A stretch of 24,000 nucleotides of DNA from Salinispirillum marinum (GCF_042651565.1 NZ_JBHSDF010000004.1); one strand, 5' to 3'. Shown: positions 130 to 12,137, counted from the stretch's first letter. Translations and numbers: made by a program. Notes: generated from the sequence alone by a model not told the origin.

Positions 130-422
130 GCTATGGCCTATTTGTGTTGAGGAGGCGGTGCGCTGAACGGCACACACTGCTCTCTAGTTATTGTTATGGT
201 TGTACCAGTCCCTAGCAATAACTGGGCCGATGCTCTAATCCCGCCTTATTTGCAGGCGTTGCTTCACATTTGTGACCAATGTTCGGCGGATAGTCACCCA
301 AAGTGTAGTCCAAACTGGCGAGTATCCACTCATTTTTGCGAAACTGCCGTCTGACGCTTTTGCATCTCAATCGGGTGTGCTATTTCTACCACCTCGATAG
401 CAAAATTTGGGCAACAGGTATT

Positions 423-2795
423 ATGCGTTTGGTGACAGGCTTACGATGGATAAAGCGACTAACGGTACTCGTCAGTCTTGCCCTGGTTATCGGGCTTGGT
501 TTCTTTTACTGGCAACTGACCGGTAGTCTCGCCACCCTAGACGGCCAGCGCCTAGGGCTGCCACTGCATGCTGACGTGACCATTACCCGCGACCAACAGG
601 GTCTTCCCACCATCACCGCCACCACCCGACCCGACACCGCATTTGGCCTGGGCTATATTCATGCCCAAGATCGGTTTTTCCAGATGGATTTATTACGCCG
701 CAATTCGGCAGGGGAAATGAGTGCACTTTTTGGTGCGGTAGCCCTAGGGTACGACCAACGCATACGCGTGCATCAGTTTCGGCAACGCGGTAATGCGGCC
801 GTAAATGCCCTACCGCAAGCCCATCGTGATGTGTTGCACGCTTACACATTAGGCGTAAATGCAGGCTTGTCGGATTTGCGCAATCCGCCGTTTGAATACA
901 GCTTGCTGGGTGTTGAACCCACTCCATGGGTACCCGCGGATACCATGCTGGTACTGTATTCCATGTACCTGGACTTACAGCCCAACTGGAACGAACAAGA
1001 AGCCTCCCGCGCCGCCATGCTGGACCTGTTGCCCGCTGATTGGTTTAACTTTTTGCAACCCGAGGGTGGCGAGTGGGATGCGCCAATCAGTGGCACGCCG
1101 TATGTCTACGCCGCTGACCTACCTGAAACACCGCTGGCGCAGTTCTCTACCGCTCCAGATCCGCTGGCCTATCGCTATGCTGACCCCTTTGATGTCGGCT
1201 CCAACAGTTGGTCGGTGGCGGGCAGTCGCACCCGCTACCCTGCCGCCATGGTGGCGAACGACATGCACTTGGGATTGCGAGTACCCAATATCTGGTATCG
1301 CGCGACATGGGCCGTACCAGGCCACGACCGCAGCATTTCAGGGGCTACCCTGCCGGGCACTCCTGCCATGGTGGTCGGGTCGAATGAGCATATTGCATGG
1401 GCCTTTACCAACAGCAATGGTGACTACCACGACACCATCCTTTTACAGACCCGCCGGGATGATAGTGAGTATTTAACCCCTGACGGCTGGGTGCCTTTTG
1501 AGATACAGAACGAGGTTATTGCCATAAAGGATGCCGAACCCGTGGTGAGCGCTGTTAAACGCACCCGTTGGGGGCCGGTGATCGGGCGGAATCATAACGG
1601 TCAGTGGATGGTGATGCGCTGGGTCGCGCACGACCCGGCCGGTGCAAACCTGATGTTGATGGAACTGGAAGGTGTTGACAAGGCGGTAGACGCTCTGCCT
1701 ATCGCTGCGCAAACCGGTGTGCCAGGGCAAAATTTTGTGGTGGTGGACAAAGATGGCAACCAAGCGTGGAGCATCATGGGCCGCTTACCGCGCCGTGCGG
1801 GAGAGGGTTTTGATGGCCGCTTGCCGATGGACTGGTCCACTGGCACCCACTTTTGGAACGGCTATTTAACACCAGAGGAATACCCCCGGGTTATCAATCC
1901 AGCCACCGAGCGGATTTGGACCGGCAATGCTCGCATGGTATCCGGCGCAGATCTCGAACGCGTGGGCACCGCAGAATACGCTTTGGGCGCCCGCCAACAA
2001 CAAATACGCAACCGCTTATTGCAGAATCAGGTGTTTACCGAACAGGATTTTTTAGACCTGCAAATGGACAACCAAGCCATCTTCCTTGAGCGCTGGCAAG
2101 CACTGCTCAGTGCTGTTTTGGCACAACCAAATTCAGCGGAGCTGGCCGACGCCCAACAATATGTCGATAACTGGGCGGGGCGTGCGGATAAAAACGATGT
2201 GGGCTATTGGCTGGTCAAGCGCTTCCGCGAGAAAGTCATCAACGCTACCGCTGGCGAAGTCTTTCGTTATTTGGAACAGCAAGCACCCAACGTCTTTGTG
2301 ACCAGCCACATTAACCGCATGGTGGAATACCCGGTGTGGCAACTGGTGACCGAGGAACCGGCTGCACACCTACCTGCCGGTTACACTGACTGGACGACAT
2401 TCCTACGCGCGATAGCCTTCGAGATGGTGCAAGAACTCACCCAGAACGGTGGCGAGCCCTTGGCACAACACACATGGGGCAGGCACAATACGTTGGCCAT
2501 TGAACACCCCCTAGCGAACAACATTCCGCTGCTTGGCCGGTTCCTGAAAATGCCCGCCGAACCCATGCATGGCGACACCTTTATGCCCAATATCCAACGC
2601 CCGGACAATGGTGCATCACAGCGCATGGCGGTAGCACCCGGCCATGAAGAAAACGGAATATTTCACATGGCAACCGGCCAAAGCGCACACCCTCTGTCAC
2701 CGTTTTTTGACCGGGGGCATCGGGATTGGGTAGAAGGCCAGCCCTCACCGTTATTGCCGGGCGAAACGCGTTATAGGTTGAGGCTTTTACCCTAG
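423..2795 (+). CDS. Penicillin acylase family (S45 Ntn hydrolase), probable acyl-homoserine-lactone / N-acyl amide acylase with an N-terminal membrane anchor
   Basis: The 819-aa ORF starts at a TTG. The likely real start is the ATG at 423 (MRLVTGLRWIKRLTVLVSLALVIGLGFF = TM or signal anchor). Family pattern: GLGYIHAQDRFFQMDLLRR in the alpha part, and DVG-SNSWSVAG with the predicted autoprocessing nucleophile Ser at nt 1200-1202. Length and layout are typical of PvdQ/QuiP/HacB-type acylases. Confidence 0.85.
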   Translation: MRLVTGLRWIKRLTVLVSLALVIGLGFFYWQLTGSLATLDGQRLGLPLHADVTITRDQQGLPTITATTRPDTAFGLGYIHAQDRFFQMDLLRRNSAGEMSALFGAVALGYDQRIRVHQFRQRGNAAVNALPQAHRDVLHAYTLGVNAGLSDLRNPPFEYSLLGVEPTPWVPADTMLVLYSMYLDLQPNWNEQEASRAAMLDLLPADWFNFLQPEGGEWDAPISGTPYVYAADLPETPLAQFSTAPDPLAYRYADPFDVGSNSWSVAGSRTRYPAAMVANDMHLGLRVPNIWYRATWAVPGHDRSISGATLPGTPAMVVGSNEHIAWAFTNSNGDYHDTILLQTRRDDSEYLTPDGWVPFEIQNEVIAIKDAEPVVSAVKRTRWGPVIGRNHNGQWMVMRWVAHDPAGANLMLMELEGVDKAVDALPIAAQTGVPGQNFVVVDKDGNQAWSIMGRLPRRAGEGFDGRLPMDWSTGTHFWNGYLTPEEYPRVINPATERIWTGNARMVSGADLERVGTAEYALGARQQQIRNRLLQNQVFTEQDFLDLQMDNQAIFLERWQALLSAVLAQPNSAELADAQQYVDNWAGRADKNDVGYWLVKRFREKVINATAGEVFRYLEQQAPNVFVTSHINRMVEYPVWQLVTEEPAAHLPAGYTDWTTFLRAIAFEMVQELTQNGGEPLAQHTWGRHNTLAIEHPLANNIPLLGRFLKMPAEPMHGDTFMPNIQRPDNGASQRMAVAPGHEENGIFHMATGQSAHPLSPFFDRGHRDWVEGQPSPLLPGETRYRLRLLP

Positions 2796-2849: not shown

Positions 2850-3701
2850 ATGGACGAGTTGACGGGCGTAGTCATAGCTGTAGTACTGGGCATTTTGGCG
2901 TCCAGTTGCCTGCATTTGTCCCAAGGTTTTATGCGCCTTGGTATTGTTCGGATGCGCGCCTCAACGCCAGTGCCCGGCGGGCGTGTTTTTTACGTCATTG
3001 GCCTGCTGTTGAATTTCAGCGCACCCTTTTGGGTGATGGTCGCTAATGTGTTCGCACCTACTCTTTGGTTTACTTCCATGTTCGCCACAGGGCTGCTGAC
3101 TTTAATGGTGTTTTCTCACTATTATCTCAACGACCCCATTACCTGGCCAAAAACCTTTGGCGTGAGCGCCATATTGCTTGCCACTGGCCTGCTGGCGGTG
3201 ACGGGACTTTCCGCCATACAAGACTTCAAACCACCGCTTGTTCTGTTGCTGTCGGTTTCGCTAGCTTGGGTATTAGCCATGCCTACCTTAGCCATCCTGT
3301 GCCGACACGCGCGGCTGCCGATTCAGGAAATGCTGTTTGGTACAGCCGCAGGCGGCTTTTTTGCGTTGGATGCCCTGTGGAAGAGCGCGGCGCAACAGAT
3401 GGGGGGCGACACAACTCAGTTGCTGCCTGCAACGCCTCTGGGATGGCTCATTCTCATGGCCAGCTTCGGCGGTGCTGCAGGTGCCTTCGCCATGATGCAA
3501 TGGTCTTATCTGCGTTTCTGTCGAGCGTCTGCCGTGGTGGTCAGTTACAACATGATCTATGTTCTGCTGCCGCTGAGCTTGCTCGCTTTGATGGGAATTT
3601 GGGAGGCGTTCACCTTGCCTATGTTAGCGGCCATCGTGTTGCTGCTCGGTGGCGCGGCTTTGATTCAATTTAAGGGGCATGCTGACGTAATAAATCCGTG
3701 A
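2850..3701 (+). CDS. Polytopic inner-membrane protein of unknown function (about 9-10 predicted TM helices; DMT/NIPA-like at best)
   Basis: 283-aa ORF that is almost entirely hydrophobic helices. GGAG lies 8 nt upstream of the ATG. It sits 54 nt after the acylase stop on the same strand. No diagnostic motif was recognised. Confidence 0.6.
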   Translation: MDELTGVVIAVVLGILASSCLHLSQGFMRLGIVRMRASTPVPGGRVFYVIGLLLNFSAPFWVMVANVFAPTLWFTSMFATGLLTLMVFSHYYLNDPITWPKTFGVSAILLATGLLAVTGLSAIQDFKPPLVLLLSVSLAWVLAMPTLAILCRHARLPIQEMLFGTAAGGFFALDALWKSAAQQMGGDTTQLLPATPLGWLILMASFGGAAGAFAMMQWSYLRFCRASAVVVSYNMIYVLLPLSLLALMGIWEAFTLPMLAAIVLLLGGAALIQFKGHADVINP

Positions 3702-5481
3702 TCACGCCAGAGCTAGCGGGTTTACTGTGCCAGTAGCCTTGTCCATGGTCACTCCCTAATTTACGCAGCTGCTGAAACTGGTCGTCGGTTTCAATACCTT
3801 CGGTGATCACCTTAAGATTCAGGCGGTGTGCTAGGTCGATGATGGTTTGCATCATGAGTACATCCTGCTCGCCGTGCGCCAGATTCAATACGAAGCTGCG
3901 ATCAATCTTCAATTGTGTGATCGGCATACGGCGCAGATAGCTTAGGCTGGAGTAGCCTGTGCCAAAGTCATCAATGGCAAGCCGAATTCCGTGCTGACGC
4001 AAGGCCTGCATCACTTCGATACAGGCATCAATATCCCCCAAAAACGCCGTTTCTGTAATCTCCAATTCCAATGCCGATGGCGGCATCTGATGGGCTTCCA
4101 ACGCATGAATAACATCGGCCACAAAATCGGCACGCAGAAATTCCGTGGCTGACACATTAACCGCCATGGTGAAGGCGTCGTTGATCAACCCTGCTTGATA
4201 CCATTGCCGCCATTGCGCACAGGAGGTTTGCAATGCCCAGTCACCCAAGGCTTCAATTATGCCGGTGCGTTCGGCCATGGGTATGAAGATATCCGGAGGA
4301 ATGAAAATACCGTTGTGCTGCCAACGCATGAGTGCTTCTACGCCGATGGGCTGCCCGTCACTTAGCCGAATTTGCGGTTGGAAAAACATCGCTAGCTCTT
4401 GCTTATCTAAGGCGCTGCGCAAATGCTCTTCCATTTCAAGCCCGCGCTTTACTTCTTCGCCGAGATAACGGTCGTACCAGACCAACTCTTGGTCTTCCGA
4501 TTGTTGGGCGTGATGCAGCGCGGTGTTGGCGTCATCTATCAGCTCATCAACCGTCATGCCTTTGGTGAAATGCACCAGACCCATACGTGCGTTGAGCTGG
4601 AACTCCCGTTCACCGACAAATACGGGCTTACTGACTGCTTGCACGAACTCTTCAGCCGACTTTTTTTCGCAGGCCTCGTCGTCGGCAAGAATGAGTACGC
4701 CAAAGATATAGCCGTCAAAACGATAGACTCGCCGCTGGCAGGTCGGGTCACTGTCTTCGTACTCGTTTTGGAAGGTGGTAGCCAAGCGGCATATCACTTG
4801 GTCGGCCACTTGGTAGCCGTCACGCACAGCGCTGGTGGCTAGACCACGCACCCAACTGAGCCCTAAGGTAACGCGTTGACCGGAGGCAATCTTCTGCTTT
4901 AAGTCTAGTTCGAGCGCACGCCGATTGGGCAGTTGCGTAATGCTGTCGTGGCTGGCTTGCCACTCCAATAAACACTTGGACTCTTCGCGCTCGGTCACGT
5001 TCTCTACATAGATATGTGCGCGGCCAAGTTCAGCCACCACGTGTACCCGGTATTCGTAAATTTCGAGGTCAACACGATGCTGCCATAGGTCATTGTTTAT
5101 GTGACGCTGTTCAAGGTGATGCAAACGCGTAACGTAGTCATTAGGCAACAAGTTTTCCAGCGCGCCAGAGGATTCCGGCAATTGAGCCAGCAAAGCCTTG
5201 GCAGCCGGATTAATGTACATCACACAGCCATCGTGCAGAGACACCGAGAACACCGGATTGGGGTTAAAATGCGGAAAGACTTCATCACCGCTGTTGCGCA
5301 CGGCGCTGTACGTGGAAACCAAAAAGGGCACACAGAAATTGAGCAGCACCATTCCCCACCTTATGTCTTCGTCTCCCAGAATGGCACCGCCTTGGTTGAT
5401 CGCGTTCAGTACCAGGCCGACGACCGCACTGATTTTGACGGCATTGATGAGCATGGGCTTGGTGGGCAAACTGTGCAACAT
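3670..5481 (-). CDS. c-di-GMP phosphodiesterase: N-terminal 2-TM module (NrtS-like), PAS-like region, degenerate GGDEF, intact EAL domain
   Basis: EAL-domain motifs are present: GVEALMRW, ELEITE, DDFGTGYSSLSYL, KIDRSF, EGIET, GQGYW. The GGDEF domain opens with DSITQLPNRRAL, but the active-site position reads RFDGYIF instead of GG(D/E)EF. AGGAAG lies 6 nt upstream of the ATG at 5479-5481. Confidence 0.85.
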   Translation of the reverse strand: MLHSLPTKPMLINAVKISAVVGLVLNAINQGGAILGDEDIRWGMVLLNFCVPFLVSTYSAVRNSGDEVFPHFNPNPVFSVSLHDGCVMYINPAAKALLAQLPESSGALENLLPNDYVTRLHHLEQRHINNDLWQHRVDLEIYEYRVHVVAELGRAHIYVENVTEREESKCLLEWQASHDSITQLPNRRALELDLKQKIASGQRVTLGLSWVRGLATSAVRDGYQVADQVICRLATTFQNEYEDSDPTCQRRVYRFDGYIFGVLILADDEACEKKSAEEFVQAVSKPVFVGEREFQLNARMGLVHFTKGMTVDELIDDANTALHHAQQSEDQELVWYDRYLGEEVKRGLEMEEHLRSALDKQELAMFFQPQIRLSDGQPIGVEALMRWQHNGIFIPPDIFIPMAERTGIIEALGDWALQTSCAQWRQWYQAGLINDAFTMAVNVSATEFLRADFVADVIHALEAHQMPPSALELEITETAFLGDIDACIEVMQALRQHGIRLAIDDFGTGYSSLSYLRRMPITQLKIDRSFVLNLAHGEQDVLMMQTIIDLAHRLNLKVITEGIETDDQFQQLRKLGSDHGQGYWHSKPASSGVITDLLRQHAP

Positions 5482-5501: not shown

Positions 5502-6425
5502 TTATTGAACGTCAATGAACCTTGCTTTCACCTTAGCATTGATTTCCGCTACCGGCACAATAATCCCCAGTTCAAGAGCGTTGCCAAAATCGGCATCGAA
5601 TACGGTTTCGCCGCACCAAATGCCGGTCGACAAGGACATATAAGACTGCAACACGGGTGGGATGCTCATGTCGTGCGGCAACAGTGCATCACGCAGTTGG
5701 CGGATACGCTCGTCGGCGCTGTTGTTCTCGCCAAAGGCCGCCGCGGCGTGCGTGGGTTCATATCGGCAGGTTTGGCGCGCCACTAAATAGGGTTCCGGCG
5801 GAGCATAATGTGCCTGCATGGTACTGACTAATAGGTCGCGGCCGGTGTAGTTCAGGGTTTGGTACAACGACACATTGCCAAAGAAATACTGCACCTCAGG
5901 GTGTTTGCGCAGCAATGCGCCCAAGCCTACCCACGTTGCAAAGAAGCCCAACGCGCCCTTTTTGGCGGCGCGGTTGACCACCGAGCGGCCCAGTTCAATG
6001 GCATAGGGCAGGATGTTGCGTTGGAACGAAAGAGAATAATCAAACAAGCCAAAAGTTCGCAAACACTCTGGACCAAACACGGCCACCTTAGCACCCAACT
6101 GATAGCGGTACATGGCGACCATTTCTTGATATTCGGGGTCCCAGGCCACCAACTGCGAATAGCACTGTTCGCCGTAGTCACGGTGGTCGAGGTCCAGCTC
6201 TTCGCCTCGTCCGGCACCGACGGCGCGGAAACCGGCTTCGCGCAATCGCCCTATTTCTTCCATCGCGGCTGGGCATTCGTCGCCAGTGAAACTGTAGATA
6301 TTCAGGCCACGAAACTGTGCCAGCGGTGCCAACGCGGCGAGTTCTTGCGCCACGCTGTTCTTGATGACGGCGGAGATGGCAATTGGGTCTGCTTGAGCAA
6401 GAGTCGATTGATGCGCGAGTGTCAT
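5502..6425 (-). CDS. GNAT-fold N-acyltransferase of the OlsB / putative hemolysin (COG3176, Acetyltransf_5) type; predicted lyso-aminolipid (N-acyl amino acid) synthase
   Basis: The pattern EIGRLREAGFRAVGAGRGEELDLDHRDY...LVAWDPEYQEMVAMYRYQ...ELGRSVV is typical of OlsB-like N-acyltransferases. The real start is the ATG at 6423-6425, with GGAG 7 nt upstream, and it overlaps the upstream stop as ATGA. The 53-aa extension in the track ORF (to 6584) lies inside the upstream gene. Confidence 0.75.
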   Translation of the reverse strand: MTLAHQSTLAQADPIAISAVIKNSVAQELAALAPLAQFRGLNIYSFTGDECPAAMEEIGRLREAGFRAVGAGRGEELDLDHRDYGEQCYSQLVAWDPEYQEMVAMYRYQLGAKVAVFGPECLRTFGLFDYSLSFQRNILPYAIELGRSVVNRAAKKGALGFFATWVGLGALLRKHPEVQYFFGNVSLYQTLNYTGRDLLVSTMQAHYAPPEPYLVARQTCRYEPTHAAAAFGENNSADERIRQLRDALLPHDMSIPPVLQSYMSLSTGIWCGETVFDADFGNALELGIIVPVAEINAKVKARFIDVQ

Positions 6426-8062
6426 GATGAAGTCTCCTTCAAGACAAGAGAGGACGTAGCCTGAGCGAGCGCCGGATGCGGACGCGCCAGCCGCCCATAT
6501 TGTGCACGGACAATCGCCATGCGCTGTTGATCGTTCGGGGCGAGCTGTTCGAGATCCTCGGCACGGATGGTTTCCCCCACGCACACATCGAAGGTGCGGG
6601 TAGCGGGTTTCAACAGCTCGCGCGGCAGCAAGGCCATTTCAAGGTTCAGCGCGGCATTGAAGCGCTGGCGCAAAGCCGCGACGCCATGAAACAACCATGA
6701 ATTCGTGCCTTCTAGGTGGATAGGCACCAATGAGCGACCATAGCGTCGGGCCAGAGTCACAGGCATGCTGTGCCATTCAAAGTCGGTCAGTTGGCCCTGT
6801 TGTTTGCGCGCGGTGCGCCCGGCCGGGAACACTAAAATGGCGGCGTCGGTGGCGAAGGCGGCATGCAGATTGCGCACCGACTGGCGCGAAGAACGATATC
6901 GATCCACCGGCACGACCAAGGGTTGCAGGGGCGGAATCAAGGTCAGCAAATCCGTCACCACCACCTTCACCTCCGGATAGTAACTTTGCAACCACGCGAG
7001 CAGAATCAGGCCATCTAGGCCACCGGTTGGGTGATTCGCCACAAATACCGGACGTGCTGCGACCGTGGGTAGCGTTGCGCCATTAAGCACCTGTGCGCTA
7101 ACGCCCAAACGCTGCAACACTTGCGCGGGAAAACGACGCGCATTGGTGTCCGAAAGGGCCATTAACGCTTGGTTGAATTGGCGCACTTGCGTTATCCACA
7201 ATAACAACCGCAACGGCCAACCGCGCAAGCGCTGCCAAAGCGTTGGATTTTTGTCCTGTAACAACCGTTCAACGTCTACCGGCGGTGCAATGGGTGGTAC
7301 AACGGGCGCACTGTGCGGCAGGGGCTGCCAATGGGTTTTTAACGTCTGTATGCTCGTCGGCTCGGCTCCCGGTACAGGTGTACCCGGCCAATATTCCATG
7401 CGCGTTAAACCCGGCTGTACCTGAATGCGTGTTAGGCTGACGGTGGCGCGGTCGCGCCGGTTCATCGCAACCGATGCCCATGGCATCCACCCGTGGCGTT
7501 GGCAATGCGCTTGTAGCTGGTGTTCAGGCGTCCAAATTCGCCAACCTTGGAGTTCGGTTGCCCAGCGGGAGAAAAAATACCGCCGCAGCAGGGGAATCCA
7601 CTGCGGCAGTAATGAGGAAGTACTGAACGGTGAGCTGGGAGCTACCGTCTCTGACCATGCCTGTGCCGACCAACGCCAGCATAGCGGTTCTTGGGTTTGC
7701 CAAAAGACAAAAACAACGCAAGGCGCGAAGTCCATTGGAGCGGTATTCTGCAACAACGAACGCACCGCCATCGGCGTGGCACAAGCACTCAGGGAGCGCA
7801 CCAAGCGGCCACGACTCTGGGTAGCCATGGTAGTTCGGTGTTGTTGTTCAGCGGCATAGTCGTTCAGCAAGCAAATCGTTAGCCCTTGGTCGTTGGTGGC
7901 TAGCCAGAAACCATCACCTTCAGGGTCATGCGGAGCCAGTATCTCGCGCCCGCCTTCATTGAACACCATCGGCGGCTCGGCTGCGATGCGACTGCGCCGT
8001 TCATCCCGGCTGAACACAATGTTCAATGTGCCCTGATGATGTTGCCAACTTAGGGTGCACAT
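6422..8062 (-). CDS. Two-domain fusion: NRDE/TANGO2-family (DUF833-like) N-terminal domain, Pro-rich linker, and PlsC/OlsA-type lysolipid O-acyltransferase domain
   Basis: N-terminus: MCTLSW (Met-Cys start), SRDE at the NRDE-motif position, GFWLATNDQGL, SRGRLV. Linker: PGTPVPGAEPTS...PLPHSAPVVPPIAPP (about nt 7277-7387). C-terminal domain: FVANHPTGGLDG (His codon at 7031-7033) and VFPAGRTAR (Phe codon at 6827-6829), the acyltransferase catalytic and binding boxes. Confidence 0.7.
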   Translation of the reverse strand: MCTLSWQHHQGTLNIVFSRDERRSRIAAEPPMVFNEGGREILAPHDPEGDGFWLATNDQGLTICLLNDYAAEQQHRTTMATQSRGRLVRSLSACATPMAVRSLLQNTAPMDFAPCVVFVFWQTQEPLCWRWSAQAWSETVAPSSPFSTSSLLPQWIPLLRRYFFSRWATELQGWRIWTPEHQLQAHCQRHGWMPWASVAMNRRDRATVSLTRIQVQPGLTRMEYWPGTPVPGAEPTSIQTLKTHWQPLPHSAPVVPPIAPPVDVERLLQDKNPTLWQRLRGWPLRLLLWITQVRQFNQALMALSDTNARRFPAQVLQRLGVSAQVLNGATLPTVAARPVFVANHPTGGLDGLILLAWLQSYYPEVKVVVTDLLTLIPPLQPLVVPVDRYRSSRQSVRNLHAAFATDAAILVFPAGRTARKQQGQLTDFEWHSMPVTLARRYGRSLVPIHLEGTNSWLFHGVAALRQRFNAALNLEMALLPRELLKPATRTFDVCVGETIRAEDLEQLAPNDQQRMAIVRAQYGRLARPHPALAQATSSLVLKETSS

Positions 8063-8580
8063 AATGACTGCTCCACACCCTGCGACGTTTCATAGCGGCG
8101 TGTGGATGGGTTAACGCCGAAACCCGGTGGCATGGCGCCGCCCTGTATCACCACCAGCATTTCCACCAAAGCAAAGTGATGAATGCTGTGTTGCGTGAGA
8201 AATACCAGCTCGCGGGCTAATGTCGTTGTGACCGGTGCGTTATCATCGTCGGTGCAGTAGTGGAGGATCAACGCTCGGTCACCGTGCTTTATATGTGTTG
8301 CTAGCTCAGTCTGGACGCACTGCAACAACATCAACGCATACGATGAATCGACCTCGACACGCGGGTCACGCTGACGATGTTCGTAGTCGATGTCGGTGCC
8401 ACTTGATAAGGCGACAGACAAGGCGAGATAGTGATCCAGGATATGCCGCACGTGGCGGCCGGGCGTTTGCCCATGTGGTAGCAATTCACAATGGCCGCTG
8501 TACTCCGTGTGGTTTACATGCGCCAGCCAGTTCTCCAAGCGTTGCATGACACCGACGGCTTCGTGCCACAGCAGGCTCAT
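8050..8580 (-). CDS. DinB-superfamily (DinB_2-like) putative metal-dependent enzyme
   Basis: His-rich motifs are spaced as in the DinB four-helix-bundle family: RHILDHYLAL near the N-terminus and LTQHSIHHFALV near the C-terminus. The preferred start is the ATG at 8578-8580, with AGGAAA 4 nt upstream. The 3' end overlaps the next gene by 13 nt. Confidence 0.62.
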   Translation of the reverse strand: MSLLWHEAVGVMQRLENWLAHVNHTEYSGHCELLPHGQTPGRHVRHILDHYLALSVALSSGTDIDYEHRQRDPRVEVDSSYALMLLQCVQTELATHIKHGDRALILHYCTDDDNAPVTTTLARELVFLTQHSIHHFALVEMLVVIQGGAMPPGFGVNPSTRRYETSQGVEQSLCAP

Positions 8581-8609
8581 GTCGTTTCCTATCCGTTGAT
8601 CACCTACCA

Positions 8610-9437
8610 TCAATTTTCCCTCGGCATATTGGCGACACTGCGGCTATTGACATCGTTGAGCGCCCAGTCGTAATCAAGAAAACGAATAGGCACCTGCTCA
8701 GTCGCCAAGCGCTCCCGTTGATTGTCCGGCACCCCCAGCTCGTCGGCATATAACGCTAAGAATTCGCCCAATCGGTTAGTGCCTTGCCAACCGGAAGCGA
8801 AATCATCCCGATACCAACGAAATATCGAAGACACTTCAACGCCTTCACCCGCCCAGCGGTTGCGTGATCTATCGCTGAGAAAAGCCCGCGTAGCCTGATC
8901 CAACTGTTGCTCTAGCGTGTCCGCTTCAAAAGCTTCGGTCAGCAAAGCCGGGCAACCGATACTGGCGCAGTTCACCGCAAAATGGATACGCGGTTCGTTA
9001 TAGCGCCCCGAGCCACGGATCATTTCATGTTCTATTTCGTCCAAACTGCGCTCTTGACCCAAAAGAGGAATGAATTCGCGTTTCCACGGTGAACGAAAGA
9101 GTGAGCCCAGATCACGAATAGAATCAAGGTCAGGATAAGCGGTGAGTATCAACTCCACCGTCCACGCGTTATAGGCGTTGATCAAAAAAGCGAGCTGGGT
9201 ATCCGACGACCATTGCTCAAACTCAGGCTCTGTCACCGCCGACAGTGCATCCAGATAGTCCGTAAGCTCGGCCCGCTGGTCTGCGAAACCCGCATAGTCC
9301 ACGGCGGTGGCTCGTCCCTCATTGAACGGCTGCACATGGCGCTGCAACAATTCTGTCCACGCTCTGTGCTCCATGGCCGACACCGAACCACCGAACAGCC
9401 CCCCGAGCAGGACACCTAGCCATACTATTCTTCGCAT
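8610..9437 (-). CDS. Secreted/periplasmic DUF547-domain protein
   Basis: Matches the DUF547 pattern: AFLINAYNAWTVELIL, SLDEIEHEMIRG, EPRIHFAVNCASIGCPALL. From the ATG at 9435-9437 the N-terminus is a signal peptide (MRRIVWLGVLLGGLFGGSVSA|ME). The upstream ATG at 9500 is possible but lacks an SD and would bury the signal peptide. Confidence 0.7.
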   Translation of the reverse strand: MRRIVWLGVLLGGLFGGSVSAMEHRAWTELLQRHVQPFNEGRATAVDYAGFADQRAELTDYLDALSAVTEPEFEQWSSDTQLAFLINAYNAWTVELILTAYPDLDSIRDLGSLFRSPWKREFIPLLGQERSLDEIEHEMIRGSGRYNEPRIHFAVNCASIGCPALLTEAFEADTLEQQLDQATRAFLSDRSRNRWAGEGVEVSSIFRWYRDDFASGWQGTNRLGEFLALYADELGVPDNQRERLATEQVPIRFLDYDWALNDVNSRSVANMPREN

Positions 9438-9657
9438 CAATTCTTCTACCCTTTGCCTACTGATTACCTGCTTGGATATCACCCGTGTAAAAAAGTTCAT
9501 TCTGTCTGCTTTGCCTGTCGCGGAATGTTCACAAGATGGTTTAGGCTTTAACTGTTATACTTTGTAACCGCAGGTAACGATTAGGGAAATTCCGACGTAT
9601 TCTCCCGCCCGCGCTTATTTTTGTTTTTCTGGTTGCGTCAACAGTAGAGGTTTGCCT

Positions 9658-11013
9658 ATGGCATATACGGTCATTGCCGAAGAACTCAGAGAAGCCTTAG
9701 CCAAGGACGACCTCCAGACCATGGAGCAACTCGTTGCCGATATGCAACCGGCTGACCTCGCGGAATTCATTCAGGAACACCCGGTCGACATCAACCTGAA
9801 GTTGTTGTCTTGCTTGCCGATTAAACAGCGCGCGGAAACCTTTGGTTATTTCTCCGAAAATGATCAGCGCGAACTGGCCGAACACATGGATGAGTCCACC
9901 TTGGCTAACCTGTTCATCCACATGAACTCGGATGAACGGGCCGACTTGTTCAACCTGCTCGAAGAAGAACTTAAAGCCGATTTGATGCGTCGCCTAGCGC
10001 GTAATGAGCGGGAGGACTTGCGCCGTCTGTCCAGTTATGAAGAAGGCACCGCGGGGTCTATTATGACCAGCGACTATGTGGCTGTGCCTGCCCAGTCCAG
10101 CGTTGCGCAAGCCTTTGATATTGTGCGTTCTACCGCACCCGACGCGGAAACCATTTACGACATCTACAGTATCGACCATATGGGTCGTTTGATGGGTGCG
10201 ACGTCGCTGCGCGAAATGATTCTGGCGCGCACCACGGCGCGGATGGACGCGCTGATGACCACGGAGCTGATCAGCGCTACCGTGGATACCCCGCAGGAAG
10301 AAGTCGCCAAACTGATTTCACGTTACGATCTCTTGGCGTTGCCGATTATTGATAATGACGCGCGGCTAGTAGGCATTGTGACCTACGATGACGCGATGGA
10401 CGTAGCAGAACAAGAAGCCACGGAAGACATCCACAAAGGGGCTTCAGTGGGCCGTTTGGATGACGGTTTTGGCCGTGCGCGCTTGCGGGATCTCTATCGG
10501 ACGCGGATTGTTTGGCTGGTCTTGCTGGTGTTTGGCAACATTTTCTCCGGCATGGGCATAGCGCTGTTTGAAACCACCATTGCGGCGCATGTTGCTTTGG
10601 TGTTTTTTCTCCCCCTATTGATTGGCAGTGGCGGTAATGCGGGTGCGCAGGCATCCACGCTGATGGTGCGGGGTATTGCTACGGGCGATGTAGGTGTTTC
10701 GGATTGGGCACGTTTGCTGGGCCGGGAGCTGCTTGTGGCCGGTGCACTAGGGCTAACCATGGCACTGGCTGTATCACCCATTGGGTTCTGGCGCGGGGGC
10801 GAAGAAATTGCGTTTATTGTGGGTACCGCCATGATCAGTGTGGTGGTGTTGGGTAGCCTGATCGGTATTTGCTTACCTTTTATTCTCAATCATCTCGGTT
10901 GGGACCCGGCAACGGCGAGCGCTCCGCTGGTAACCACCTTGATTGATGCGGCCGGGGTCATTCTGTATTTCAGTATTGCTGCGGCGGTATTGGATCTGCC
11001 TGGCCTGTTTTAA
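9658..11013 (+). CDS. mgtE: Magnesium transporter MgtE
   Basis: N-terminal MgtE domain, a CBS pair, and a 5-TM C-terminal domain with the characteristic FLPLLIGSGGNAGAQASTLMVRGIATGD. The ATG at 9658 is preceded by AGAGG with 7-nt spacing. The track ORF starts two codons earlier at a TTG. Confidence 0.9.
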   Translation: MAYTVIAEELREALAKDDLQTMEQLVADMQPADLAEFIQEHPVDINLKLLSCLPIKQRAETFGYFSENDQRELAEHMDESTLANLFIHMNSDERADLFNLLEEELKADLMRRLARNEREDLRRLSSYEEGTAGSIMTSDYVAVPAQSSVAQAFDIVRSTAPDAETIYDIYSIDHMGRLMGATSLREMILARTTARMDALMTTELISATVDTPQEEVAKLISRYDLLALPIIDNDARLVGIVTYDDAMDVAEQEATEDIHKGASVGRLDDGFGRARLRDLYRTRIVWLVLLVFGNIFSGMGIALFETTIAAHVALVFFLPLLIGSGGNAGAQASTLMVRGIATGDVGVSDWARLLGRELLVAGALGLTMALAVSPIGFWRGGEEIAFIVGTAMISVVVLGSLIGICLPFILNHLGWDPATASAPLVTTLIDAAGVILYFSIAAAVLDLPGLF

Positions 11014-11057
11014 CGTATCGTCGCTTGTTATTTTTCTTCTGATAGGACTGATTGTGT

Positions 11058-12137
11058 ATGGCTTTTACTGGAGTCCGTAACTATTCGCACGCCCAACCGG
11101 ATAAGACCGGTATTTTAATCACCAACTTAGGCACGCCCGATGCGCCCGAAACTGGTGCAGTGCGGCGTTACCTACGCGAGTTTTTGTCTGACCACCGGGT
11201 AGTGGAAATCCCCAAGGCCATTTGGTGGTTCATTCTGAACGGCATCATTCTGTTGCTACGGCCAGCACGTTCAGCGAAGAACTATCGTACCGTTTGGACA
11301 GAGCGCGGTTCACCGTTGCTTTACCATACGGCAGATCAATGCGCTGCCATTCGCCAGTACATGCAGGGCCGTTATGGTGATGATGTGGTGGTGGAATTTG
11401 CCATGCGCTATGGCAACCCGGCCATTACCGATGTACTGCAAAAGATGCAAGACCAAGGTGTACGCCGTTTGCTGGTATTGCCCATGTATCCTCAGTACTC
11501 AGCCACAACAACCGCCTCAACCTTCGACGCCATTGCGCACGATTTCGCGCAGCGGCGCTGGATTCCCGAACTGCGTTTTATTAATCACTACCATGATTTC
11601 CCGCCCTATATCGAAGCCATGGCAGAGCATATTGAAGCGTTTCAAAAAATCAACGGCAGCCCGGAAAAGCTGGTTTTGTCATACCATGGCATACCCAAAC
11701 GCAACCTATTGGAAGGCGACCCCTACCATTGTGAATGCTACAAAACGTCGCGTTTACTGGCCGAACGCCTTGGCCTTCCACGTGAGCAAGTACTAACTAC
11801 GTTTCAGTCCCGATTCGGTAAACAGGAATGGCTTAAACCTTATACGGATGCCACGATGAAGCAATTAGGGGCGGAAGGCGTGGGCTCGCTTCAGGTATTC
11901 TGCCCGGGGTTTCCAGCCGACTGTTTAGAAACCATTGAAGAAATAGCGGAAGAAAACAAACATTACTTTGAGGAAGCCGGCGGGAAGAACTTTGCCTATA
12001 TTCCGGCGCTGAATGCAGAACCGCACCACATTCATGCCCTGACGGCCCTATTGGAGCAACACCTGAAAGGTTGGCACCCGTTGGGTAATAGTGACAAGGA
12101 GTTAACCGTGGCAGAAGCCAACGCAAAAGGCGCTTAG
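11058..12137 (+). CDS. hemH: Ferrochelatase
   Basis: GILITNLGTPDAPETGAVRRYLREFLSDHRVVEIP, LVLPMYPQYSATTT and LVLSYHGIP are classic HemH motifs. The gene lies 44 nt downstream of mgtE on the same strand. Confidence 0.92.
   Translation: MAFTGVRNYSHAQPDKTGILITNLGTPDAPETGAVRRYLREFLSDHRVVEIPKAIWWFILNGIILLLRPARSAKNYRTVWTERGSPLLYHTADQCAAIRQYMQGRYGDDVVVEFAMRYGNPAITDVLQKMQDQGVRRLLVLPMYPQYSATTTASTFDAIAHDFAQRRWIPELRFINHYHDFPPYIEAMAEHIEAFQKINGSPEKLVLSYHGIPKRNLLEGDPYHCECYKTSRLLAERLGLPREQVLTTFQSRFGKQEWLKPYTDATMKQLGAEGVGSLQVFCPGFPADCLETIEEIAEENKHYFEEAGGKNFAYIPALNAEPHHIHALTALLEQHLKGWHPLGNSDKELTVAEANAKGA

Follow-up and report, generated by a model that had tools for sequence, protein, structure and literature searches.

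Why should a domain of the NRDE/TANGO2 family be joined to an acyltransferase of membrane-lipid synthesis? The question is raised by an open reading frame (ORF) at 6422..8062 on the minus strand of a 24,000-nucleotide stretch of DNA from Salinispirillum marinum (Saccharospirillaceae, Oceanospirillales; NZ_JBHSDF010000004.1), the whole of which is here called the window. Deficiency of TANGO2 causes severe metabolic disease in humans, and what the protein does at the molecular level is disputed, the proposals being haem trafficking, binding of acyl-coenzyme A (acyl-CoA), and the action of a cysteine-type N-terminal nucleophile (Cys-Ntn) hydrolase on fatty-acid derivatives. A first-pass annotation of the window had taken the fusion as Rosetta-stone-type evidence that the NRDE domain acts on an acyl-thioester or acyl-lipid substrate in membrane-lipid synthesis. 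This inference emerged stronger than had been claimed, as several independent arrangements of genes link the same components. The most constant partner of the NRDE domain is encoded by a DinB-like gene, which the annotation had missed. On balance, it appears probable that the DinB-like protein and the NRDE domain form an accessory module of an aminolipid pathway, in which Cys2 would attack an acyl-amide or acyl-thioester for editing, turnover or exchange.

A recurrent fusion in a four-gene unit

The ORF encodes 546 amino acids in two parts, with every motif quoted in the annotation found in its place. Its start codon is forced, as an in-frame TGA lies 30 nucleotides upstream with no ATG, GTG or TTG between, and the product therefore begins with Met-Cys; GGAG is located 8 nucleotides ahead of the ATG. 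The NRDE/TANGO2-family Cys-Ntn domain, assigned by PF05742 and by its predicted fold, spans residues 1-225 (7388..8062, minus strand as for all features of the fusion) and contains MCTLSW at residue 1 with the codon for Cys2 at 8057..8059, the motif SRDE (residues 18-21, 8000..8011), GFWLATNDQGL at residue 51 and SRGRLV at residue 83. The acyltransferase domain (residues 267-546, 6422..7264 including the stop codon) carries the boxes NHPTGGLDG (residue 343, 7010..7036) and FPAGRTAR (residue 412, 6806..6829). Between the two domains, the proline-rich linker noted before (residues 226-266, 7265..7387) has a proline content of 27%, a column conservation of 0.32 compared with 0.51-0.55 in the domains, and a length that varies from 31 to 81 residues among 24 fusions; to judge from its sequence it is a flexible tether. 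A hydropathy check found no transmembrane helix in the fusion protein, and a lipoprotein-type N-terminal Cys was ruled out, since no signal peptide precedes the Cys. A terminator-like hairpin inside the NRDE coding region (7568..7611, minus strand, residues 151-165; 14 pairs, 8 of them G-C, followed by TTTTTT) is probably due to chance, the regional count of such sites being within the expectation from shuffled sequence.

A database record carries this same protein under the title 'NRDE family protein [Salinispirillum marinum]'. A first homology search yielded about 30 clusters with both domains at 31-53% identity, and an exhaustive profile search of 1.84 billion representatives gave about 28-30 full-length fusion clusters (50% identity) spread over three phyla; a genome-collection scan with the single protein as query yielded one locus. 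With profiles built for this analysis, 56 retrieved proteins showed the order NRDE followed by O-acyltransferase and none the reverse. The fusion is thus recurrent, and its split versions adjoin OlsB-like genes. Hosts include Natronospirillum, Alkalimonas, Alishewanella, Cyclonatronaceae (Balneolota) and a metagenome-assembled genome (MAG) of a soda-lake Spirochaetaceae; the named hosts are mostly haloalkaliphiles or soda-lake organisms, and the split forms are found chiefly in marine metagenomes and in Vibrionaceae. Comparison with the 87%-identical syntenic relative L006 gave ratios of non-synonymous to synonymous substitution rates (dN/dS) of 0.17 for the NRDE domain, 0.10 for the O-acyltransferase, 0.06 for the downstream N-acyltransferase and 0.14 for the DinB-like protein, values that show every part to be under purifying selection.

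The halves of the fusion form two overlapping but distinct ORFs in L006, solely because L006 has one base fewer in an A-run of the linker (A5 in the window, positions 7336..7340, minus strand). This split, together with an internal deletion in the related MAG protein P0002 and degenerate NRDE domains in some fusions, could be read as the mark of a sequencing or assembly frameshift artefact, or of a functionless decaying remnant. Such a reading is hardly credible given the continuous architecture in about 28-30 clusters of three phyla and down to 31% identity, the N-domain dN/dS of 0.17 with an invariant set of catalytic-type residues, and the recording of the identical protein from three contigs. 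The ORF at 6422..8062 is a genuine fusion; its continuous frame is the conserved state, and therefore the L006 sequence must have been split recently or through a fault of assembly. P0002 (L001, 6001..7254, Natronospirillum MAG) is an 88%-identical homologue of only 418 residues that lacks the last part of the NRDE domain, the linker and ~45 positions at the start of the acyltransferase domain, a deletion that is either real or an assembly error of the MAG. Among relatives of 480-510 residues only two are fusions of DinB to the acyltransferase (DinB::O-acyltransferase), the others being degenerate NRDE::O-acyltransferase fusions.

Hidden Markov model searches place residues 1-230 in PF05742 and residues 265-546 in PF19576 and PF01553. 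Residues 267-509 match PF19576 (Acyltransf_2) with 120.6 bits (up to 123.2; cutoff 27), and the match to PF01553 scores 25.2 bits (cutoff 23). The earlier call of an acyltransferase therefore stands, and the type has to be corrected from PlsC/OlsA to the PF19576 type of GlsA and the N-terminal half of OlsF. Against the NCBIfam model of the lyso-glycine lipid O-acyltransferase GlsA (NF053697), the C-terminal half scores 185.6 bits, below the equivalog cutoff of 260, and by this score it is a relative of GlsA and not an established GlsA. It also matches the N-terminal half of OlsF with 144.9 bits, and the downstream gene product matches the C-terminal half with 153 bits; the cutoff of 620 for the bifunctional ornithine lipid synthase OlsF (NF052615) is not reached, the two halves being separate genes here, and bifunctional acyltransferase relatives are present in other loci. 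The boxes NHPxGG-DG and FPxGxxxR are invariant in 24 fusions, and so are N343, H344, P345, G347, G351, F412, P413, G415 and R419. The downstream N-acyltransferase matches PF13444 with 29.5 bits (cutoff 22.4), and its best NCBIfam match is GlsB (NF053696; 206.5 bits, below the equivalog cutoff of 300). The predicted acyltransferase pair appears closer to glycine-lipid than to ornithine-lipid enzymes.

The fusion is the third of four minus-strand genes, every junction of which overlaps. The first (8610..9500) encodes a DUF547 protein of 296 residues (PF04784, 93.7 bits) with an N-terminal hydrophobic signal or anchor segment (Kyte-Doolittle maximum 1.81 at residues 25-43), and its TGA overlaps the ATG of the second gene (TGATG). 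The latter (8050..8610) encodes the DinB-like protein of 186 residues, and its last 13 nucleotides overlap the start of the fusion, with the DinB-like stop inside the overlap. The stop codon of the fusion overlaps the ATG of the fourth gene (ATGA at 6425..6422), as had been annotated, and the Shine-Dalgarno sequence GAAGGAGA lies ahead; this gene (5502..6425) encodes the GlsB/OlsB-like amino-acid N-acyltransferase of 307 residues. As arranged, the genes for DUF547, DinB-like, NRDE::O-acyltransferase and N-acyltransferase are predicted to be a translationally coupled unit. Promoter and terminator scans of the region gave nothing better than shuffled sequence, Rfam gave no matches in the region, and a defence-system search of the operon proteins found nothing significant, the sole match being one at chance level for the DinB-like protein (E 0.009, 14 bits).

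The NRDE domain and its DinB-like partner

PF05742 (TANGO2) scores 31.3 bits with the whole protein and 33.5 bits with residues 1-230 alone, above the Pfam gathering cutoff of 22.6. A profile search with the N-domain retrieved 289 proteins at E<=1e-10, the best 120 of which are stand-alone proteins of 229-284 residues with 93-100% domain coverage and scores of ~198-308 bits, nearly all with PF05742. An AlphaFold2 model obtained from 18 aligned N-domains reached a predicted local distance difference test (pLDDT) of 92 and a predicted template modelling score (pTM) of 0.91. As modelled, the N-domain has the Cys-Ntn fold, an alpha-beta-beta-alpha sandwich in which residue 2 opens the first beta-strand (residues 2-9); the Ntn fold and the place of Cys2 at the head of this strand, for which a structural check had been proposed, are both seen in this model. 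Foldseek against the PDB returned, in this order, acyl-CoA:isopenicillin N acyltransferase, CV2077 (3gvz), choloylglycine hydrolase, NAAA, acid ceramidase, and bile-salt hydrolases and penicillin V acylase, with probability 1.00, template modelling (TM) scores of up to 0.70, E values of 4e-7 to ~1e-4 and sequence identities of 8-14%. These best structural matches all act on fatty or hydrophobic acyl-amide or acyl-CoA substrates.

Each of the 151 stand-alone relatives has retained Cys2, as have the 24 intact fusions in the alignment, and in the latter C2, T3, W6, R19, D20, D46, G51, N57, G60, P114, W131, T207 and S209 are invariant. The first position of the NRDE motif in fused proteins is N in 34 and S in 12, and R19, D20 and E21 are conserved. 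In an alignment with the human TANGO2 structure 8sv7, N25-R26-D27-E28 of TANGO2 corresponds to S/N18-R19-D20-E21, R32 to R25, N75 to N67 and R88-G89 to R84-G85; the positions so aligned (RDE motif, R25, N67, R84 and G85) are 100% conserved in the 151 stand-alone relatives, and the counterparts of TANGO2 R26, D27 and N75 (R19, D20 and N67), which come from a weak sequence alignment that yields none for N157 and K166, are invariant. All 56 fusions have the NRDE domain at the N-terminus, and in none does it follow a DinB domain, although the DinB and NRDE genes overlap. This strict position, together with the full conservation of Cys2 in intact members, suggests that a free N-terminal Cys matters. 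Methionine aminopeptidase removes Met before Cys.

The DinB-like protein gave weak matches to the Pfam models DinB_2 and DinB (15.5 bits, below the cutoff of 24.8), and most of its relatives carry PF05163 or PF12867. Its AlphaFold2 model (pLDDT 88) is a DinB/YfiT four-helix bundle that matched YizA and BH3987, both putative metal hydrolases, mycothiol-dependent maleylpyruvate isomerase, and mycothiol and bacillithiol S-transferases, with the DinB domains of EgtB and OvsA lower in the list; the matches are moderate, with TM scores of ~0.55-0.6. H53, R55, H56, H141, H144 and H145 are invariant and include the pattern His56...His141-x3-His145 that is typical of the DinB metal site. The protein is accordingly predicted to be a metalloprotein of the DinB/YfiT fold. 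It is homologous (E 2e-20) to the N-domain of a 486-residue protein from Natronospirillum operosum, in which DinB, and not NRDE, is fused to the same acyltransferase, a second Rosetta-stone link. N. operosum keeps DinB::O-acyltransferase and the N-acyltransferase without NRDE.

In order to compare neighbourhoods, 43 related loci were mapped with profiles built here, and clustering of their NRDE domains at 70% identity defined 21 lineages. The DinB-like gene lies directly upstream of NRDE in all 19 lineages with enough upstream sequence, and genes for N- and/or O-acyltransferases stand in the same run as the DinB-NRDE pair in 14 of ~17 informative lineages. At least six arrangements, which involve two different O-acyltransferase families, join DinB or NRDE to aminolipid genes. 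The window has DinB, NRDE::O-acyltransferase and N-acyltransferase. Marine metagenomes have DinB, NRDE and an OlsF-like O-acyltransferase::N-acyltransferase, and in metagenomes this bifunctional gene also precedes DinB and NRDE, or DinB and NRDE are followed by PF13444 (FeeM-like), PF01553 and YHS genes. The order is PF13444, PF01553, DinB, NRDE and DedA in the MAG locus L043, PF13444, DinB, NRDE and an alpha/beta-hydrolase::DedA gene in the MAG locus L044, and DinB::O-acyltransferase followed by N-acyltransferase in N. operosum. Stand-alone NRDE genes picked solely by the length of their contig fit the DinB/acyltransferase pattern in 3 of 3 cases; the exceptions to the acyltransferase pattern are TTL-associated loci (Marinobacter, Halomonas-like) and loci with truncated NRDE. 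In Aliivibrio sifiae (Vibrionaceae), DinB-like, NRDE, YHS and OlsF-like genes follow each other in that order. VCA0646 of Vibrio cholerae is a validated ornithine-lipid synthase, induced by low salt and encoded by the last gene of a putative four-gene operon, VCA0649-VCA0646, whose other genes are undescribed (PMC12186959). Comparison of the peptides encoded by the VCA0646 primers with the Aliivibrio protein did not discriminate between the two paralogues. The Aliivibrio genes, with the OlsF-like gene as the last of four, stand in the layout of this operon, and VCA0649, VCA0648 and VCA0647 may encode DinB-like, NRDE and YHS proteins.

Recurrent extras near the pair are YHS, DedA, RimK-like ATP-grasp and DUF547 genes, the last being close to it in L004, L006 and L007. 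In L042 (2726..7976), L020 (66..4717), L043 and L044, DedA/VTT membrane proteins, RimK-like ATP-grasp proteins (~375 residues) and periplasmic YHS proteins surround the core, and the fusion of DedA to an alpha/beta-hydrolase in L044 has 904 residues; these extras suggest further tailoring and transport steps. In the flanks of L002, L003, L004, L009, L010, L043 and L044, genes of thiol and redox chemistry and of metal stress abound (thioredoxin, DsbA, DoxX, rhodanese, Pyr_redox_2, DUF3179, CusF, Rieske/ferric-reductase proteins), and the Alkalimonas flank has a bufferin-type cluster (BufA1/MbnB/HvfC), content that hints at an envelope-stress or copper-stress setting. TTL-type loci from Marinobacter and Halomonas-type genomes (L007, 1001..5810; L008, 1585..5855; L009, 2092..5564; L010, 2320..5567) consist of a TTL-type ATP-grasp gene (760-838 residues), a small ORF encoding an acidic repetitive product of 87-108 residues and a DinB-like gene, with NRDE added in 2 of 4; the TTL-type ATP-grasp of Halomonas shows a weak PqqD match, and these loci look like a peptide-modification cassette.

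Around the operon itself, a gene for a PAS-GGDEF-EAL protein (3670..5481, minus strand) starts 20 nucleotides past the stop codon of the N-acyltransferase gene on the same strand and may be co-transcribed with the operon; a GGDEF-EAL gene is also close to the DinB-like gene in Marinobacter (L009), and none is so placed in L006, although it is a close relative. A gene at 336..2795 (plus strand), some 2.7 kb away from the operon, encodes a penicillin-amidase-family protein of 819 residues (PF01804, 483 bits), a second, unrelated Ntn-type acyl-amide hydrolase. PF01804 is a Ser-Ntn family that includes acyl-homoserine lactone and penicillin G acylases. On the other side, genes for MgtE (9652..11013, plus strand) and the ferrochelatase HemH (hemH, 11052..12137, plus strand) lie just past the operon, a placement that is also found in L006. 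Linkage to hemH was not found in any other lineage examined, and its proximity was rejected as a functional link, being conserved in the closest relative only.

Possible roles of the DinB-NRDE pair

In the aminolipid pathway as proposed, the N-acyltransferase would link an amino acid to a 3-hydroxy fatty acid, whose 3-hydroxyl group the O-acyltransferase would then esterify, giving an acyloxyacyl amino-acid lipid. Removal of the initiator Met would turn Cys2 of the NRDE domain into an N-terminal nucleophile, which could attack an acyl-amide (lyso-aminolipid or N-acyl amino acid) or an acyl-thioester (acyl-CoA or acyl-acyl carrier protein, acyl-ACP) to form an acyl-S-enzyme, and this intermediate might be resolved through reaction with water or with an acceptor that bears an amine or a hydroxyl group. 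The outcome would be lipid editing, turnover, or exchange of acyl or head groups at the membrane surface, and the fusion would keep the NRDE activity beside the O-acyltransferase. Acyl-CoA:isopenicillin N acyltransferase and bile-salt hydrolases are precedents for such chemistry (PMC13044924). We infer the catalytic part of Cys2, the bond that it would attack and the contribution of the DinB-like protein. NRDE is to be regarded as accessory and not as a core step, because there are fusions without Cys2, N. operosum lacks NRDE, and bifunctional OlsF alone is sufficient to yield ornithine lipid in E. coli (PMC12186959). The fusions P0137, P0142, P0143, P0145, P0146 and P0147 have Asp, Lys, Pro or Ala at position 2 and an eroded RDE motif, and may represent pseudo-enzymes or steps on the way to losing the domain; as some fusions have lost Cys2, their acyltransferase must be independent of NRDE catalysis.

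Several points weigh against a catalytic accessory module. It is counter-intuitive that a hydrolase should be fused to the biosynthetic enzyme whose product it might break down, the module offers no explanation for DinB, and the chemistry of this NRDE clade is argued from sequence and models. At least six fusion clusters have a shortened NRDE domain without Cys2 (beginning MDALTW, MKTLTW, MPSLSW or MATLNW), and the loss of Cys2 would fit a non-catalytic or dispensable role equally well. The PF05742 alignment covers residues 1-90 only (profile positions 1-93 of 257), TANGO2 structure 8sv7 is missing from the top 50 Foldseek matches, and the profile-to-sequence alignment to 8sv7 is weak (E ~0.01) and confined to the first ~90 residues. 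The locus sample was seeded with a motif of the fused clade, and the association is not extendable to all PF05742 proteins; DinB is also found without NRDE, beside TTL-type ATP-grasp genes. HtpA, an NRDE protein compared here by description only, has the metal-transporter gene SO0127 as its conserved neighbour, not DinB or acyltransferases. A narrower version of the proposal, namely that the DinB-like protein and NRDE together make up one enzyme, of two proteins, for the editing or remodelling of N-acyl amino-acid lipids by way of acyl-Cys2, by deacylation or by acyl or head-group exchange using acyl-CoA or acyl-ACP, is put forward tentatively and is itself rather doubtful.

Part of this evidence could also be turned towards a non-catalytic, ligand-binding NRDE module that hands acyl-CoA, acyl-ACP or lipid to the tethered O-acyltransferase, with Cys2 not serving as a nucleophile. 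In human TANGO2 the NRDE motif is reported to mediate binding of acyl-CoA (PMC11867700, as cited in PMC12359130), the residues docked at the CoA diphosphate in TANGO2, R32 and R88 (PMC12359130), are the conserved R25 and R84 here, several fusions without Cys2 still retain part of the domain, and a flexible tether suits a hand-over. However, such a module would not account for the retention of Cys2 in 151 of 151 stand-alone proteins and 24 intact fusions, together with the Ntn-type R19, D20 and N67, and a constant position at the extreme N-terminus matters only if a free N-terminal Cys is needed. As PlsC-type acyltransferases use acyl-ACP or acyl-CoA directly and as DinB would again be left without a role, this possibility is considered unlikely. 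The DinB-like protein would gain a role if the two proteins were a thiol-conjugation and amide-trimming pair, in which a DinB-type metalloenzyme would add a low-molecular-weight thiol or a C-S bond to the lipid or head group and an Ntn amidase would trim the product to a sulphur-containing or otherwise tailored aminolipid. A DinB-fold enzyme followed by an amidase occurs in ergothioneine synthesis (EgtB and the Cys-Ntn enzyme EgtC), mycothiol detoxification and lincomycin synthesis, and so the order has precedents. The structural matches of the DinB-like model to mycothiol and bacillithiol S-transferases, to the mycothiol-dependent isomerase and, lower down, to EgtB/OvsA would fit, as would neighbourhoods rich in thioredoxin, DsbA, DoxX, rhodanese and Pyr_redox_2. 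Those matches are only moderate, though; the NRDE model resembles lipid-amide hydrolases and isopenicillin N acyltransferase rather than EgtC and other class II glutamine amidotransferases, and a 2026 review mentions no sulphur-bearing acyloxyacyl aminolipid of this kind (PMC12971839), so that a thiol pair is regarded as improbable.

A further alternative is a haem-binding or trafficking module like HtpA or HRG-9, with the fusion serving to target haem delivery to the membrane. HtpA (SO0126), a stand-alone cytoplasmic DUF833/NRDE protein of the gammaproteobacterium Shewanella oneidensis and the one bacterial TANGO2 homologue with experimental work behind it, has a reported role in haem trafficking, and binding of haem was reported for it and for several TANGO2 proteins (PMC10470608), so that the view of bacterial members as uncharacterised, taken in the first-pass annotation, has been out of date since 2023. 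In the window, hemH lies ~1.5 kb from the operon, as it does in syntenic L006, but not near NRDE in any other lineage examined. The haem role of HtpA has since been challenged (PMC12782551), a crystal study judged the haem contacts of TANGO2 to be nonspecific (PMC13044924), and HtpA has another conserved neighbour and no DinB, whereas the constant partners here are acyltransferases. A haem module is therefore very improbable.

The accessory aminolipid module thus remains the preferred reading. The library of papers searched has none that links TANGO2, NRDE or DUF833 to aminolipids or that describes this gene cluster. What is new is that a lipid pathway already known has an accessory module of two proteins that is undescribed but widely conserved, and that one of the two is from a family whose function is disputed. 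The evidence from bacteria, independent of earlier work and evolutionary in kind, favours the lipid/acyl side of the TANGO2 debate; it narrows the candidate substrates to N-acyl amides and acyl-thioesters, newly names a DinB-like partner protein, and adds candidate tailoring or turnover genes to aminolipid pathways. If the acyl-Cys2 two-protein enzyme were true, its reaction would be the first defined for the NRDE/TANGO2 family, and human TANGO2 would, by extension, be a transacylase or hydrolase of lipid acyl-amides or acyl-thioesters and not a haem chaperone. The question is approachable by bacterial genetics and lipidomics, and the VCA0646 operon of V. cholerae may be a tractable model.

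Comparison with known systems

GlsB/GlsA of the Bacteroides glycine lipid and OlsF of Serratia and V. cholerae (VC0489, VCA0646) carry out the same two chemistries with PF13444 and PF19576 domains. A further common point is that the genes are adjacent and translationally coupled. In contrast to those systems, the scores here lie below the equivalog cutoffs, the O-acyltransferase has an additional N-terminal NRDE domain, and the operon adds DinB-like and DUF547 genes. The 2026 aminolipid review mentions neither NRDE, DinB-like or DUF547 components nor degradation of such lipids (PMC12971839). With the DinB/YfiT metalloenzymes (mycothiol S-transferase 8f5v, BstA 5wk0, mycothiol-dependent maleylpyruvate isomerase 2nsf, YizA 2qe9), the DinB-like protein has in common the modelled four-helix bundle and the His pattern of the metal site, to which it adds further invariant residues (Arg, Tyr and Glu) and, at the C-terminus, an FGV-PST motif.

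In the Cys-Ntn acyl-amide enzymes (acyl-CoA:isopenicillin N acyltransferase 2x1c/2x1d, NAAA 6dxy, acid ceramidase 5u7z, bile-salt hydrolase and penicillin V acylase), the nucleophilic Cys starts the first strand, as modelled here, and the substrates have a hydrophobic acyl group amide-linked to a small polar amine and so resemble a lyso-aminolipid. Unlike these enzymes, which work without a DinB partner, the fusion has no propeptide and only Met to remove. Two crystal papers on human TANGO2 propose a Cys-Ntn enzyme for fatty-acid derivatives on the basis of the same structural comparators (PMC13044924, PMC12359130), and its NRDE motif is described as needed for acyl-CoA binding (PMC11867700, as cited in PMC12359130). 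Human TANGO2 (8sv7, 9bwa) and the domain described here share the Met-Cys start, (N/S)RDE, GGTW, the Asn of LLNDY (N75), the SRG segment (R88-G89) and the alpha-beta-beta-alpha Ntn fold. In contrast to the human protein of 276 residues, the bacterial domain has ~225 residues, is fused to an acyltransferase and paired with DinB, and in the window has Ser in place of Asn in the motif.

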